60,812 nucleotides of DNA from Alphaproteobacteria bacterium (GTDB lineage: Bacteria > Pseudomonadota > Alphaproteobacteria > RF32 > CAG-239), in the NCBI GenBank assembly GCA_045633945.1, contig JAZQZH010000010.1:1-60812 (forward strand), written 5' to 3'. A program made the translations under genes and the position numbers. Shown here piece by piece: positions 7,988-18,898 of this stretch (its first letter is position 1; the number at the start of each line of letters is the position of its first letter). The notes under the pieces were generated by a model. It saw only the letters and a list, made by a program, of their open reading frames with translations. It made no database searches and was not told where the DNA came from.

Positions 7988-10429
7988 ATGGCTGATTTAA
8001 CAGAAGAAGAAATTATTAAAGGTGAACAAGAATATAATGCTGATTCTATTAAAGTATTAAAGGGTTTGGATGCTGTTCGTAAACGTCCAGGTATGTATAT
8101 TGGTGATACCGATGATGGATCAGGTTTACATCATATGATATATGAGGTTTTGGACAATGCTATTGATGAAGCTTTGGCAGGATATTGTGATAAGACCGAA
8201 GTTATTTTAAATCCTGATGGTAGTGCGACAATTAGAGATAATGGTCGTGGTATGCCTGTTGATTTGCATAAAGAAGAGGGCGTTAGTGCTGCTGAAGTTA
8301 TTATGACAGAACTTCATTCTGGTGGTAAGTTTGATAATAACTCATATAAAGTATCTGGTGGTTTACACGGTGTGGGTGTTTCGGTTGTTAATGCGCTTTC
8401 TACTTGGCTTAAATTGAAAATCTGGCGTAATGATCAGCAGTATGAGGCAGAGTTTAATAATGGTAATGTTATTGAGCACGTGCATGTTACAGAGCAGACA
8501 CCTGGAAAACATGGTACTGAGGTTTCTTTCTTACCATCTTCAGAGACTTTTACTCAAACAGAATTTAGCTATGAAACACTAGAAAGAGCTATTCGTGAAA
8601 AAGCATTTTTGAATAGTGGTGTTTATTTAAAGTTGATTGATAATCGTGGAGTTGAACCAAAAGAAACAGTGTTCCATTATGAAGGTGGTTTGAATGCATT
8701 TGTTACTCATTTGAACAAGGCTAAAGCTCCTTTGCATGAAAATATTATTAGTTTTTCTGGTCAAGATAATGATATTCAAGTTGATGTTGCTATGCAGTGG
8801 ACAGAAGCATATAATGAGAGTATGTTGTGCTTTACTAATAATATTCCTCAAAAAGATGGTGGTACCCACTTAGCTGGTTTTAGAGGTGCTTTAACTAGAA
8901 CTATTAATAACTATATTCAAGAAAATGGATTGCTTAAGAAGGATAAAACCGCAATTACTGGTGATGATATGAGAGAAGGTTTGACTTGTGTATTATCAGT
9001 TAAGGTGCCTGATCCTAAGTTTTCATCTCAAACTAAAGATAAATTAGTTTCTTCTGAAGTTAGACCTGTTGTTGAAGGTGTTATGGGTGAAAAACTTAAA
9101 GAATGGTTAGATGAGCATCCAACAGAGTCAAAAGTTATTGTTGGTAAAATTGTTGAAGCGGCGACAGCTCGTGAAGCAGCTCGTAAGGCTAGAGAATTGA
9201 CACGCAGAAAAGGTGTGCTTGATATTTCTTCTCTTCCAGGTAAGCTTGCAGATTGTCAAGAAAAAGATCCAGCTCTTTCTGAAGTGTTTATAGTGGAGGG
9301 AGATTCTGCGGGCGGTTCTGCAAAACAAGGGCGTGATAGAAAGAATCAGGCAATTATGCCACTTCGTGGTAAAATTTTGAACGTGGAAAGAGCGCGTTTT
9401 GATAAAATGTTAAACTCTGCTGAAATTGGTACAATTATTACTGCGCTTGGTACTGGTATTGGACGCGATGACTTTAATGCGGATAAATGTCGTTATCATA
9501 AGATTGTAATTATGACCGATGCCGATGTTGATGGTGCACACATTAGAACATTATTGCTAACATTCTTTTATCGTCAAATGCCTGAACTTATTGAAAGAGG
9601 TTATATCTATATTGCTCAACCTCCTTTGTATAAGGCGAAAAGAGGTAACTCTATAATCTATTTGAAAGATGATAGAGAAATGGAAGATTATTTGATTAAT
9701 GGTGGTTGTGAAGATGCTTATTTAGAAACAGCAGATGGAGAACGTGTTTTAGGGCAAGATTTAGTTAGTTATGTTGAGAGCACAAAGAAAGCAAGAAACC
9801 TTATTTCTATGTTGAGTGTTAAGGCGCCTGAACGTATTGTTGAACAGATGGCTATTTCTGGTTTGTTTGACAAAGTGCTTTTGGCAGATAAAGTACGTTT
9901 AGAAGGCGAATTAGCAAAACTTACAAATCGTTTAGATGCTCTTGAAGCTGAATATGATAGGGGTTGGCAGTTTGAAATTTTAGAAAATGGAAACTTATCT
10001 TTCTATCGTACACTTAGAGGTGTTAAAGAAGATTATATCGTTGGAGCATCTGTTCTTGAAAGCTCTGAAGCTAAGATGCTTAACTCTATGAGAGAGTTTT
10101 TGGCTAATAACTTTACTAAAACACTTAAGCTTGTTGCTAAAGGTGGTGTTGAAACTGTTGTTGCCGGTCCTGTTACATTGGTTGATGCTATTATGGCGCA
10201 AGGCAAAAAGGGTATTTCTATTCAACGTTATAAAGGACTTGGAGAGATGAACCCTGAACAATTATGGGAAACAACTCTTGATCCTGAAGCTCGTTCACTC
10301 TTGCAAGTTAAAATTGATCAACTTGAAGAAGCTGATGAAGTGTTCTCTACATTGATGGGTGATGTGGTTGAGCCTCGTAAAGAATTTATTCAAGAAAATG
10401 CACTTAATGTTGTGAACTTGGATATCTAA
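7988..10429 (+). CDS. gyrB: DNA gyrase subunit B
   Basis: [53 protein letters not shown] at 7988 preferred over TTG at 7982. Confidence 0.98.
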
Positions 10430-10446
10430 TTAGTTATATGTTTTGT

Positions 10447-10480
10447 AAAAGAAAGCCTCTAATTAAAGAGGCTTTCTTTT
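10447..10480. terminator. Bidirectional terminator between gyrB and porin gene
   Basis: aaaagaaagcctct...agaggctttctttt inverted repeat between convergent genes. Confidence 0.85.
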
Positions 10481-10481
10481 A

Positions 10482-11582
10482 CTATAAATCGAGATTAAGA
10501 CTAACTGAAAAAATTGCTAAAGGAGAATTTTCTTTGTATTTGTGATTGATGTATAGTTGTATATCTGGTCTTATTGATACATTAGAATTGAGTTTATAAT
10601 CATAGTATGTTTCTAGGATATGTTCTTTAGATGTGGTATTGTTTATTCTATTTGTTGAATATGCTACAGCAAATTGATCGGAATTATTGCGATTAAAAGG
10701 GTTATCATATAAAAAACCCAATGAGTATGATTTGTTTATGATTGGATATTGTCCTGTTGCACCATTTAGTCTAAAGAATATGCTATGTTTTGAGCTTATG
10801 TCTTGAGTTAGATATAATGACCAACCTTGACTGCTAAATGGAGATTTTTTAACAGAAGGTTTATCATATATAAGTAAACTATATGAACCATGGTATTTGT
10901 TTTTGAATTTTGGAGTATAATTAAGTGATAAAAAAGAAGAATATTTATCAAAACTTTTAAAATGTATGCTGTTTGCTAGAGGATTTGTCGCATCTATTGC
11001 GCCAAAGCTTAAGGAGGTGTTATTATTTAGTTTAAGCTCTGTAAATGCTCCAATTCCAGCTGTTGGATAGGTAAAGGTTGTGTTTTGCGCAAGAGCAGAG
11101 TTGAGAAAGTAATAACGTTGTAAGTTGCTTGCTATGGGACAGTCAAATTTTGATATTGGGATTTGACCTAAGCCAAGTGTTATGAAGTTATATTTTTGGT
11201 TAAATGTGTGGCTAAAGTATAATTCATATAACTCATTATAATTTGTATCATAATTGTTAAATAGTGTTGCTATATGATATTTGGGTGCGACATCTAGGGG
11301 GGCTTTTTGCGGAAAACGTACAAAGTTTGCAGAAAAATTGAGCAAAGTTTTTCCTAAATTGCTATTTAAGATGTCTTTTGTTAAATATGGGGTTATGATA
11401 TTTCTGGATACAGTGTTTGATGAGATTTTTTGCATTGTATAAGAAATGTTTATTCCAAAATTTAAATTGTTTTTTGTTTCAAAACTTGTTTTTAGCTTAT
11501 CATATTGTGTTAAATAATCTAATGCATTTGCTTTAATTGAACAAAGTAAGAGAAGAATGCTAAAAAGTAGTCTTTTTACCAT
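10482..11582 (-). CDS. Carbohydrate-selective porin (OprB-like)
   Basis: Signal peptide; FLNSAL, ETYY..L...VSIRPDIQLYIN C-terminal beta-strand pattern. Confidence 0.7.
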   Translation of the reverse strand: MVKRLLFSILLLLCSIKANALDYLTQYDKLKTSFETKNNLNFGINISYTMQKISSNTVSRNIITPYLTKDILNSNLGKTLLNFSANFVRFPQKAPLDVAPKYHIATLFNNYDTNYNELYELYFSHTFNQKYNFITLGLGQIPISKFDCPIASNLQRYYFLNSALAQNTTFTYPTAGIGAFTELKLNNNTSLSFGAIDATNPLANSIHFKSFDKYSSFLSLNYTPKFKNKYHGSYSLLIYDKPSVKKSPFSSQGWSLYLTQDISSKHSIFFRLNGATGQYPIINKSYSLGFLYDNPFNRNNSDQFAVAYSTNRINNTTSKEHILETYYDYKLNSNVSIRPDIQLYINHKYKENSPLAIFSVSLNLDL

Positions 11583-17710: not shown

Positions 17711-17726
17711 TCTCTACACTCTATAA

Positions 17727-17760
17727 GAACGGCTGCCTTTGGGCAGCCGTTCAGGTTTTT
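17727..17760 (+). terminator. Terminator of paralog 2
   Basis: gaacggctgcc-tttg-ggcagccgttc followed by aggttttt. Confidence 0.8.
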
Positions 17761-17818
17761 AAATTCATATATCAAAAATGTATTTTTTTGTATGTATAAT
17801 TAAAATAAGAGTGTTATT

Positions 17819-18898
17819 TTAGTCTAAGTATAAGGAACTTAGTTTGTAGCGCTTGATGGCTAGACGTACTAAGACTCCTATAATTGCAGCTAGCGGAACA
17901 GCAAGCATTAAACCTAAAAAGCCAAGTAAAACACCACCAGCCAATAATGCAAACATTACCCAAACAGGGTGCAGGCCAACAGACTCGCCAACAAGTTTTG
18001 GAGTTAAGAAGTTGCCTTCAATAAATTGCCCTATCATAAACACTGCAATAACGTATAATACATGAGTTATGTCACCATATTGAGCAAAGGCTAAAATGCA
18101 ACCAATAATAAAGCCGGTTATGGAGCCTACGTATGGTATAAAAGATATGATTCCAGCGATAAAACCAACAAGCAAACCTAGTTCTAAACCAACAAGTTTT
18201 AAACCAATTGAATAAAATATGCCTAAAATTATACATACACTTAATTGTCCACGAATGAAGCCAGCAATAATTTTATCAATTTCTTTTAAGGTTTCTGTTA
18301 TAGTTTTTTTAGATTTTTTAGGGAGCAAACTTTCAAACTTTTTAACAAAATCATCCCAGTCACGAAGCATGTAAAAAGTTACGATTGGCATGATTAGTAA
18401 TAATGACAAGAGATTTATTAGTGCGAATCCGTTTGAAACGAGTGCTTTTAATACTTTGCCTACAAATTTCATTGAGTTGCCAATGTTTGATTTTATAAGT
18501 TCTTCGATATTGGCACTTTGTAATTCAGGGAATCTGCCAGACATTTCTTGTAATGAAGGGCGCACCTTTTCCATAATGAGGTTTAAATATTTGGGAGTTG
18601 CTTGAATAAGTAGTGATATTTGGTTTTCAATTAACCCCATTAATAAACCAATAGTTGGTAAAACTATTATGATTAACAAAGCGCATACAACTAGAGTTGC
18701 CGATGTTCTTGAAAGTTTTAGTTTTTGTAATTTATCAACACAAGGGTCTAATAAATAAGCAAGTAAGGTGCCGGCAACAAATGGCATTAAAACTGAACGT
18801 AGAATATATACTAGGTAGAAAAATGCAAAAAACACTATGAGCCATGTATATGGACTTAATTGGATTTTGCTTTTATTTTTAGGTCTAGTTAATTGCAT
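17819..18898 (-). CDS. AI-2E family transporter (PerM-like)
   Basis: LAYLLDP, GFIRGQ, FIPYVG, EGNFLTPKLVGESVGLHP; start MQLTRP at 18898 after GGAGG. Confidence 0.92.
   Translation of the reverse strand: MQLTRPKNKSKIQLSPYTWLIVFFAFFYLVYILRSVLMPFVAGTLLAYLLDPCVDKLQKLKLSRTSATLVVCALLIIIVLPTIGLLMGLIENQISLLIQATPKYLNLIMEKVRPSLQEMSGRFPELQSANIEELIKSNIGNSMKFVGKVLKALVSNGFALINLLSLLLIMPIVTFYMLRDWDDFVKKFESLLPKKSKKTITETLKEIDKIIAGFIRGQLSVCIILGIFYSIGLKLVGLELGLLVGFIAGIISFIPYVGSITGFIIGCILAFAQYGDITHVLYVIAVFMIGQFIEGNFLTPKLVGESVGLHPVWVMFALLAGGVLLGFLGLMLAVPLAAIIGVLVRLAIKRYKLSSLYLD

Follow-up and report, generated by a model that had tools for sequence, protein, structure and literature searches.

The convergent junction between gyrB and an AI-2E family transporter gene in an uncultured animal-gut alphaproteobacterium holds three modules in series, set apart by three scars that are 3′ ends of the flanking genes. 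The order in our window (the whole stretch of DNA that was analysed, 60,812 nt) is gyrB, a 5.5-kb operon, an AI-2E end, cassette 1, a second AI-2E end, a gyrB end with terminator, cassette 2, and the AI-2E gene (Table 1). Compared with 44 loci from relatives, extra gyrB or AI-2E ends occur in the window only. The best explanation, which we regard as probable with some reserve, is that the junction is a hot spot of homologous recombination at which one-ended or short-homology joins, or illegitimate tandem duplication, would stack alternative alleles; that foreign DNA was taken up, by which recombination route, and in what order the events took place is what we infer. Every piece listed in a preliminary description of the locus was recovered, at coordinates that were exact or off by a few bases.

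Table 1. Features of the gyrB/AI-2E junction and repeats among them
Feature	Position	Strand	Evidence
Intact gyrB, 815 aa	7982-10429	+	ORF; found in 36/36 genus genomes
gyrB 3′ tract near-identical to G019, left edge of shared block	10175-10429	+	3 mismatches/255 nt versus 230/2193 nt upstream
Hairpin, gyrB stop to porin stop	10438-10489	.	Inverted repeat I7, 23-nt arms, 87% complementary
Seven-gene operon	10482-15885	-	Pfam and NCBIfam; 98.35% identical to G019; syntenic in G022 and G004
Promoter-like site of operon (TTGACA, 17 nt, AATAAT)	15981-16009	-	11/12 matches
Scar a: last 34-36 nt and stop of AI-2E gene, third allele "y"	16018-16052	-	
Cassette 1: TTGACA promoter region, 210-nt leader, ORF, terminator 16680-16705, spacer	16053-16770	+	
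Scar b: last 128 nt of AI-2E gene, allele x'	16771-16898	-	98.4% identical to 17819-17946
gyrB scar: last 105 nt of gyrB, allele "z"	16899-17003	+	89.5% identical to 10325-10429
gyrB-type downstream spacer, terminator hairpin 17026-17051 and T-run	17004-17058	+	
Cassette 2: promoter and leader as in cassette 1, ORF, terminator 17727-17752, spacer	17054-17818	+	
AI-2E family transporter gene, intact	17819-18931	-	ORF, NCBIfam match; fine mosaic relative to G019
Repeat pair	10325-10430 and 16899-17004		90% identical
Repeat pair	16709-16898 and 17757-17946		97% identical
Repeat pair	16053-16352 and 17054-17353		94% identical
Repeat set	16012-16051, 16765-16804 and 17813-17852		83% identical

Operon, cassettes and scars

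The operon encodes an OprB/AaxA-like porin, a radical SAM protein, a nucleoside deoxyribosyltransferase-like protein, a PnuC-like transporter, a protein with a CofE-like ligase fold, an NMN-adenylyltransferase-like protein, and one unknown product. The hairpin between the gyrB and porin stops is likely a two-way terminator, judging from its inverted repeat; among the gyrB-downstream regions displayed, this spacer is found only in the window and in G019, the nearest species, at 100% identity. The two cassettes are ~0.75 kb each, with a promoter of their own, and their product is a hypervariable ankyrin-like small protein: 137 aa and ankyrin-like from the cassette 1 ORF (16263-16676), and 148 aa from the cassette 2 ORF (17264-17710). 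The cassette proteins matched no toxin or immunity family, and their likeness to ankyrin is weak. The cassette family is present in 3 of the 36 genus genomes. The flanks of cassettes 1 and 2 are 98-100% identical and the ORF bodies 30-64% identical, which is the pattern that alleles swapped via conserved flanks would produce.

The scars had been proposed to derive from functional alleles rather than decayed copies, and the gyrB scar bears this out. It has 11 differences in 105 nt, by which eight codons are changed silently and one is not (N to K); when differences were placed at random, one residue change or fewer was left in 0 of 100,000 simulations (P<1e-5). Since 11 base differences entail a single residue change, this scar comes from a functional allele. 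The two AI-2E scars speak less clearly when taken alone. Scar b has two differences, both silent (P 0.16), too few for a test, and scar a has seven, with five codons silent and two not (P 0.08), a pattern that is suggestive only of a functional allele. The positions at which scar a differs from the window's AI-2E gene and from that of G019 are identical. Its best match is G022 (32/37), and by reading of the alignment its variant codons are mostly present in live AI-2E genes of relatives. The silent pattern of the gyrB scar and these states of scar a point to trapped DNA from another lineage. Our search for intact genes with y or z alleles found none; the spacer behind the gyrB scar (17004-17058) has homologs in the regions that follow gyrB in G022, G004, and G016.

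Exchange with relatives

Within gyrB, 89.5% of the positions agree with G019 as far as 10174, and 98.8% do so from 10175 onward (Fisher P 1.4e-8). A switch inside gyrB had been predicted, and it lies at about 10175, followed by near-identity through the operon: 10175-16012 is 98.4% identical, and the background of the window relative to G019 is ~81%. Past the AI-2E stop at 16012, identity falls to 81.6% in scar a. The intact AI-2E gene is 96-100% identical to that of G019 over most of its length, and G019-identical stretches alternate in it with patches that are 18-21% diverged. A tract that may be of donor type begins inside a homologous anchor gene, as seen in the gyrB step and the AI-2E mosaic. 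G019 carries the gyrB 3′ end, the operon, and AI-2E without interruption as a single block, which the cassette array splits in this genome. At the level of sequence, these identities show that the gyrB 3′ end, the operon, and AI-2E were shared with G019 very recently.

The current gyrB end is identical to that of G019, and the two are sisters in each of the two tree partitions. The gyrB scar stands alone in the tree, with states in common with the group of G022, G041, G004, and G016. It had been expected to lie nearer to host relatives, and this was not the case: it is no closer to them than the current gyrB end, which groups with the host's sister.

Relatives differ in what the site contains, as at a replacement hot spot, and do so without mobility genes. 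G019 has the operon only, gyrB and AI-2E are about 90 bp apart in G041, G022 and G004 carry the operon and a 463/464-aa ORF, and G004 and G016 have a cassette directly after gyrB. The operon had been described as new cargo; G019, G022, and G004 hold the same operon at this site, and G016 holds part of it. From the genomes compared, it is the usual occupant of the gyrB/AI-2E site in relatives.

Joints and recombination genes

Two joints bound the stacked layers. At 16898/16899, AI-2E -128 meets gyrB -106 bluntly, with 0 shared bases; at 16052/16053, AI-2E -34/36 meets the T-run of the gyrB terminator with an overlap of 1-2 T. The earlier view that both are illegitimate agrees with these counts, and so does a far end joined non-homologously with little or no microhomology. 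A joint of AI-2E -34 to position 17053 was found on one contig each in runs X2 and X7, from two studies, where its left side is an x-type scar with a cassette-type spacer. Because 16052/16053 recurs with another AI-2E allele and another left neighbor, it is not the one-off join of this lineage that it had been taken for. None of the reads or contigs listed, from a set with 171 further pieces, bridges 16898/16899 or the exact joint of operon, y scar, and cassette 1, and the best of the 22 runs listed holds at most 0.30 of the sampled words.

The segment was said to be free of integrases and transposases, and indeed 0 of its 10 ORFs match recombinase or transposase families (Pfam; NCBIfam also for the seven operon ORFs). 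The window's contig gave no match to tyrosine recombinases; the six matches in the genome lie on other contigs. Ku was looked for and not found. As regards competence for natural transformation, ComEC and DprA are present, but the same searches match 10/14 and 11/14 control genomes, respectively. We considered and rejected two kinds of element: (i) an integron, as there was no intI (Phage_integrase) match on the contig or among the 10 segment ORFs, the strong hairpins are all terminators, and each cassette has a TTGACA promoter region, in place of attC sites and promoterless genes; and (ii) an integrative element at a gene 3′ end, for which direct repeats of the ends are present, with no integrase between them and with 10-17% divergence over the entire length of the repeats.

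Origin of the layers

Across lineages the junction is occupied by nothing, by the 5.5-kb operon, by a 464-aa gene, or by ~0.75-kb cassettes, and we suggest that these occupants would usually be replaced via crossovers in both flanking genes. The three in series here would then reflect two joins formed outside homology, 16898/16899 and 16052/16053. DNA of another lineage may have integrated with one end homologous and the other illegitimate, that is, by homology-facilitated illegitimate recombination; illegitimate tandem duplication would leave the same joint behind, for example at 16898/16899. No dedicated recombinase would be involved. Once formed, a scar could serve as a short homology arm, such that modules on one side are exchangeable and those on the other are kept.

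Regarding polarity, the z scar is similar to the cassette-bearing group, as is the spacer downstream of it, and the array splits the G019 block, with the current gyrB end sister to that of G019. We think it somewhat more likely that the operon was there first and that the cassette array was added later on the AI-2E side than that the reverse took place. Entry at the gyrB end, as in the preliminary description, is in keeping with the identity jump at 10175, but since the array interrupts a block that is contiguous in G019, entry from the AI-2E side fits at least as well. The latter has a difficulty of its own. With a G019-like resident AI-2E gene, scar a is expected to be x-type, and it is y-type, so that one would have to suppose either that the donor already bore a y scar or that G019 changed afterwards. 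Two further points weigh against the hot-spot explanation: joints of classical homology-facilitated illegitimate recombination usually have 3-10 nt of microhomology, versus 0 and 1-2 nt here, and the identity jump would fit a gyrB-anchored import of the operon just as well.

Such imports were the core of the earlier model, in which two successive gyrB-anchored pieces were joined illegitimately in the donor's AI-2E end, so that cassette 2 would have come in first, then cassette 1, and last the operon, beside gyrB. This is a doubtful alternative, though the strongest of those we weighed. It would account for identity to G019 that jumps at ~10175, stays high to the AI-2E stop, and drops in scar a; the z scar differs from the current end by 10.5%, as much as G000 and G019 differ from each other toward the 5′ side of gyrB; and the left side of the recurring joint varies by sample, which requires exchange reaching into gyrB. 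However, the operon is the common occupant of the site in relatives, and AI-2E is G019-like too, which needs an extra event with its edge exactly at the stop codon. Moreover, the 16052/16053 breakpoint occurs elsewhere with other partners, so this import did not create it de novo, and it is the current end, not the scar, that groups with the host's sister. We think it unlikely that the array arose by tandem duplications in place (gyrB -106 to AI-2E -128, and T-run to AI-2E -34) followed by homologous allele replacement in single copies. Both joints have the exact end-to-start topology of duplicated segments, identity between the flanks of the units is 98-100%, and the genome has further tandem pairs of small variable genes whose ends are alike (C5 5122-6757, C16 54646-55968, and C19 3259-4265). 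Yet between copies the ORF bodies are 36-70% different and the gyrB piece is 10.5% different at silent sites, so each copy would have to be overwritten later by foreign alleles, and the layer of operon and y scar duplicates nothing in the genome.

The two remaining alternatives find little credence with us. An assembler may have strung co-occurring strains with different occupants into one metagenome contig: the genome is a 54-contig draft, the relatives listed for it are all metagenome-assembled, the three layers resemble three alleles of one locus, and 16898/16899 is bridged by none of the contigs listed from other samples. But joints sharing 0 and 1-2 bases give a k-mer graph nothing to cross, they lie inside gene ends, away from the borders of repeats at which an assembler changes path, two unrelated studies have contigs with a joint of this kind at this position, and contamination is 0.22%. 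Equally improbable is a site-specific cassette system, with the AI-2E end and the terminator T-run as sites of a recombinase encoded elsewhere. The same breakpoint pair does occur with two scar alleles and different neighbors, and the genome has six tyrosine recombinase genes on other contigs; against this, the positions at 16898/16899 are entirely different, no core common to the partner sites and no attC-like inverted repeat at the cassette ends was seen, and the recurrence is explained by descent and exchange through the 34-nt scar. A broader version, which we also hold to be very improbable, would make the AI-2E -34/T-run joint a repeatedly used site, the cassettes mobile units, and the locus an integron-like platform without a linked integrase; recombination there would be due either to a recombinase that the host encodes at another locus or to structure-directed template switching at the hairpin.

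Discussion

The mechanism that we favor, stacking by one-ended or short-homology joins, is not new, having already been proposed for T6SS, Rhs, and CDI orphan arrays. Kirchberger et al. (2017, PMC5361080) describe orphan immunity-gene arrays of the Vibrio cholerae T6SS that form by sequential displacement: each incoming module is anchored through a conserved, homologous upstream stretch and is non-homologous at its far end, earlier modules and 3′ remnants are shifted onward but retained, and no integrase takes part. Those authors themselves draw the integron parallel there (PMC5361080), so an integron-like outcome without an integron, as put forward for our locus, had an earlier proposal for other arrays. 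The likeness lies in displaced 3′ ends of anchor genes kept downstream with old modules. Here, in contrast, two convergent non-toxin genes, gyrB and a transporter gene, provide the anchors with their 3′ ends, both flanks have left scars, and in place of effector-immunity pairs the modules are a transport/nucleotide-enzyme operon and small genes for ankyrin-like proteins; the toxin-immunity modules of T6SS, Rhs, and CDI displacement arrays are absent from this locus.

C-terminal displacement in Rhs and CDI loci was reportedly described by Jackson in 2009 and Poole in 2011. In these loci, too, a constant part is followed by a series of displaced 3′ gene ends, which are attributed to one-sided recombination. 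There, however, what is displaced is a toxin tip with its immunity gene, and the carrier gene itself is variable, whereas the flanking genes here are conserved and duplicated only in their last 34-128 nt. Homology-facilitated illegitimate recombination in transformable bacteria is said to go back to de Vries and Wackernagel in 2002, Prudhomme in 2002, and Meier and Wackernagel in 2003. It resembles our locus in that foreign DNA is trapped beside a single homologous anchor and has a single illegitimate joint, but those were laboratory events in cultured competent species, and ours would be read from one draft genome, with 0-2 nt of microhomology. Integrons resemble the locus in the serial build-up of small single-gene cassettes at one chromosomal site; they differ in that here intI, attC, and attI are all missing, every cassette brings a promoter and a terminator, and the joints fall at no common site. 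Minimal mobile elements are alternative cassettes between two conserved genes, without mobility genes, that recombine through their flanks. Their occupants replace one another, whereas here the alternatives are retained in series with flank scars. The term is used for Neisseria (PMC3787668, PMC1797815).

We regard the locus as a natural record, unusually easy to read, of how genes accumulate without an integrase: it has three layers beside a universal marker gene, with scars that still bear the silent-site signature of their source alleles. If confirmed in populations, it may serve to gauge how often one-ended recombination adds genes in a gut community and how often it replaces them. The gyrB 3′ end, commonly used in typing and phylogeny, has been exchanged between species along with a 5.5-kb operon in these uncultured gut Alphaproteobacteria.

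Gene-end scars and cassettes between gyrB and the AI-2E gene

The segment between gyrB and the AI-2E family transporter gene lies in a draft genome (1.43 Mb, 54 contigs, 98% complete; here G000). Its layout was confirmed: two cassettes and three gene-end copies, or scars, occur in the order that the preliminary description had reported. Both large gene-end repeats are far above chance expectation; for the short one, scar a, E is 0.002 in about 0.7 Mb of sequence, made up of the window and 44 fetched loci, and its position is exactly a module border. None of the 44 loci from relatives carries extra gyrB or AI-2E ends.

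Features of the gyrB/AI-2E segment and the basis on which each was called
Feature	Positions	Strand	Basis
gyrB	7982-10429	+	ORF call
Seven-ORF operon, 3' of gyrB	10482-15885	-	ORF call, family search
Scar a: copy of AI-2E 3' end including stop, 34-36 nt	16018-16052		repeat/alignment
Cassette 1, between scars a and b	16053-16770		
Cassette 1 protein, hypervariable small family	16263-16676	+	
Scar b: copy of AI-2E 3' end, 128 nt	16771-16898		repeat/alignment
gyrB scar: copy of gyrB 3' end including stop, 105 nt	16899-17003		repeat/alignment
Terminator hairpin of gyrB-type spacer (spacer lies between gyrB scar and cassette 2)	17026-17051		
Cassette 2, abutting intact AI-2E gene	17054-17818		
Cassette 2 protein, hypervariable small family	17264-17710	+	
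AI-2E family transporter gene, intact	17819-18931	-	ORF, family search

The claim that the segment is free of integrases and transposases also held, as none of its 10 ORFs matched a recombinase or transposase family. All six tyrosine-recombinase matches in G000 are on contigs other than the window's, and a search for Ku found none. Membership tests rejected an integron or integrative element, and a phase-variation inversion system was rejected, matching inverted repeats being absent. Elsewhere in G000, two direct repeats of about 100 nt (contig C25, 24552-24651 and 39103-39203; 96% identical, 14.5 kb apart) enclose a tyrosine recombinase match (25469-25858), a candidate integrated element.

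Origin of the scars

The scars had been attributed to functional alleles rather than decayed local copies. Judged by substitution pattern, this is right for the gyrB scar, which differs from the live gyrB end at 11 of 105 bases with one residue changed; when 11 substitutions were placed at random, 0 of 100,000 simulations matched this low residue change. Decay of local copies was rejected on this silent-site pattern. For the two AI-2E scars a functional origin is plausible: scar b has two differences, both silent (a number too small for a test), and scar a has seven, with five codons silent and two non-silent (P 0.08). The differing positions of scar a are identical whether it is compared with the AI-2E end of the nearest species (G019) or with the window's own, and in an alignment read by eye most of its variant codons are present in live AI-2E genes of relatives, the nearest being G022 (32/37).

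A pattern search of JGI metagenome contigs for the allele of the gyrB scar (allele z) gave 0 matches. The ORF at 16836-17003, which spans the joint 16898/16899, returned 154 short GyrB C-terminal fragments when used as a protein query; among the 120 listed, query coverage reached 87% at most and none crossed the joint. Many of these fragments are 60 aa long and run from a conserved Met, present in the GyrB translations of two relatives (G004 and G016), to the C-terminus, and we read them as gene-calling products rather than scars.

The locus in related genomes

The titles of related records give uncultured Alphaproteobacteria of ruminant and other animal guts. gyrB and the AI-2E gene share a contig in 16 other genomes of the genus and are convergent neighbours in two of them (G019 and G022); a third case, G041, was identified separately. 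In the remaining 14 the AI-2E gene mostly lies 8-11 kb upstream of gyrB in the same orientation, so the junction is a rearrangement product in this subgroup, and the hot spot coincides with a rearrangement breakpoint specific to the group of G000, G019, G022 and G041. The content between the two genes differs in every genome examined: the operon alone, adjoining an intact AI-2E gene (G019); about 90 bp (G041); the operon and a 463-aa ORF (G022); a cassette, the operon and a 464-aa ORF (G004); or a truncated cassette and a partial operon (G016). Between G022 and G004 the cassette is a clean insertion or deletion directly 3' of the gyrB terminator. The 463/464-aa ORFs (fetched loci L037, 10691-12082, and L041, 3869-5263) are Lys/Glu-rich and lie between operon and AI-2E gene, the same slot as the window's cassette array.

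Exchange with the nearest species

Binned by 500 nt, the window is about 65-90% identical to G019 (about 81% overall); the sole long exception, at 10175-16012, reaches 98.4%, a sign of recent exchange. A second, short stretch at 59001-59370 is also about 96-98% identical against the background of about 81%. Within gyrB, the 2193 nt that end at 10174 have 230 mismatches and the following 255 nt have 3 (Fisher P 1.4e-8), and at scar a identity falls to 81.6% over 38 bases (P 3e-6). The AI-2E gene is 96-100% identical over most of its length and forms a fine mosaic, in which identical stretches of 100-400 nt (tracts 17819-17923, 18264-18658 and 18744-18871) alternate with 50-85-nt patches that are about 20% diverged (18-21% between those tracts). 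This mosaic suggests very short recombination tracts. Beyond about 18940, identity drops to 72-85% over the next kilobase. Together, the mosaic and the identity steps imply that short-tract recombination is frequent at this locus.

The change inside gyrB that had been predicted thus exists, as the step at 10175. Depth changes tenfold there but topology does not: in our trees G000 pairs with G019 as its sister for the 5' part of gyrB and for the last 255 nt alike. The z scar branches alone and has states in common with G022, G041, G004 and G016, and the spacer downstream of it is of that type, though trees and identity tables on 105 nt are weak. By the comparison that the preliminary description itself had chosen, its expectation that this scar would be closer to host relatives than the current gyrB end was not borne out. 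Nor is the operon new cargo, as had been proposed, being an ordinary occupant of the site in relatives.

A recurring joint and the origin of the array

Two contigs, one each from metagenomic runs X2 and X7 of two studies, join the AI-2E end at -34 to the T-run at 17053 (short side 29 nt in X2, 58 nt in X7). Their left side consists of a scar of another allele (x-type) and a cassette-type spacer, and the right side in X2 is cassette 2. The breakpoint pair is that of the window's 16052/16053, but the left neighbour and the scar allele are different. It is unlikely that two independent illegitimate joins hit identical bases; more probably a single join was made, and an exchange running from gyrB to the 34-nt scar later replaced one of its sides. 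Since homology ends exactly at the joint, the replaced tract would stop there. Such a history retains the gyrB-anchored exchange that had been proposed, and it implies that the joint was not made by import of the operon and that scars serve as short homology arms. The 22 runs listed are all animal-gut metagenomes stored as contigs, and part of the window is present in 20 of them (best share 0.30). No piece bridging 16898/16899 was among those listed from X1, X2, X6 and X7, which, with 171 further pieces unlisted, neither confirms nor refutes that joint.

At the joint 16898/16899 two gene tails meet by their interior ends with 0 shared bases, a topology that one-ended homologous and one-ended illegitimate integration of a second allele would produce. 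An illegitimate tandem duplication from gyrB -106 to AI-2E -128 leaves the same topology; alone, however, it explains neither the silent-site divergence of the copies nor the 36-70% divergence of their ORF bodies, and later overwriting by foreign alleles would be needed. An assembly chimera is unlikely, because neither joint has a k-mer common to its two sides and a comparable joint occurs in unrelated samples. A site-specific system gains no support: the joints lie at different sites, and no common core was seen.

In G019 the gyrB 3' end, the operon and the AI-2E gene are one contiguous shared block, which the window's cassette array interrupts. If one ordinary double crossover moved the block, the array was either added later on the AI-2E side or deleted from G019 between direct AI-2E repeats. 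Scar a is of the y allele rather than of the G019 type, which counts against addition on the AI-2E side; such addition needs a donor already carrying a y scar. Of the proposal that two imports stacked cargo on the gyrB side, a gyrB-anchored exchange is probably to be kept; the evidence establishes neither the polarity nor that this genome received two imports. In sum, the observation is confirmed, and homology-assisted illegitimate recombination is supported as the mechanism class.

Relation to known systems

For Vibrio cholerae T6SS effector-immunity clusters, sequential displacement has been proposed, in which the anchor is conserved and lies upstream while the far end lacks homology; what remains is a series of orphan immunity genes and 3' ends of effectors. 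The same paper cites homology-facilitated illegitimate recombination, C-terminal displacement in Rhs and CDI systems, and integrons (PMC5361080). Another report suggests that dimorphic loci in E. coli and other species may arise by homology-assisted illegitimate recombination (PMC2884548). The window's locus is probably a further instance of this process. Unlike the V. cholerae arrays, it lies at the junction of two conserved genes that encode no toxin, retains scars from both flanks and belongs to an uncultured gut lineage. The process having already been proposed elsewhere, its novelty is modest; literature searches, not aimed at the organism, found no published description of this gyrB/AI-2E locus.

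Four other sites in G000 (C5:5122-6757, C16:54646-55968, C16:70649-72453 and C19:3259-4265) hold adjacent small genes with 86-96% identical ends or upstream regions and different bodies, and may be further stacked-allele loci. At C16, 1.7 kb downstream of a 417-aa ORF, the 3' end of this ORF is repeated over 111 nt.

Cassette proteins and operon content

The cassette gene is present in 3 of 36 genus genomes, and among 5.8 billion proteins only five relatives of its product were found. Conserved features of the family are the N-terminus and a TPL...LLxxLGAD repeat, which we take to be ankyrin-like; the rest, middle and C-terminus, is hypervariable. An Ank profile matched four of nine family members weakly (best E 0.04). 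A Foldseek search with the structure model for cassette 2 (pLDDT 76.8) returned nothing at E<=0.001, and most listed hits were ankyrin repeat domains at E>=0.2; ankyrin-like is thus only a weak label. In JGI metagenome contigs, 129 pattern matches to the cassette-protein alignment were obtained, 0 of which tblastn confirmed.

Promoter, leader, terminator and spacer of the two cassettes are 98-100% identical, whereas the ORF bodies are 30-64% identical and have 43.5% G+C against 31.9% in the window. The leaders, about 170-210 nt between promoter and start codon (16090-16262 and 17091-17263), are 98% conserved between the cassettes; that of G004 (L040 1700-1928) is partly conserved, and the conserved part (72% across 181 nt) contains a GATGCAGAAATG(T/C)ATC hairpin. 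Rfam gave no match in the cassette leaders or the operon leader.

The operon encodes an OprB/AaxA-like porin, a radical SAM enzyme, a nucleoside 2-deoxyribosyltransferase-like protein, a PnuC-like transporter, an unknown 172-aa protein, a 397-aa protein with a CofE (F420-0 gamma-glutamyl ligase) fold and an NMN-adenylyltransferase-like protein. These assignments suggest a route by which a nucleoside-type compound is taken up and processed.
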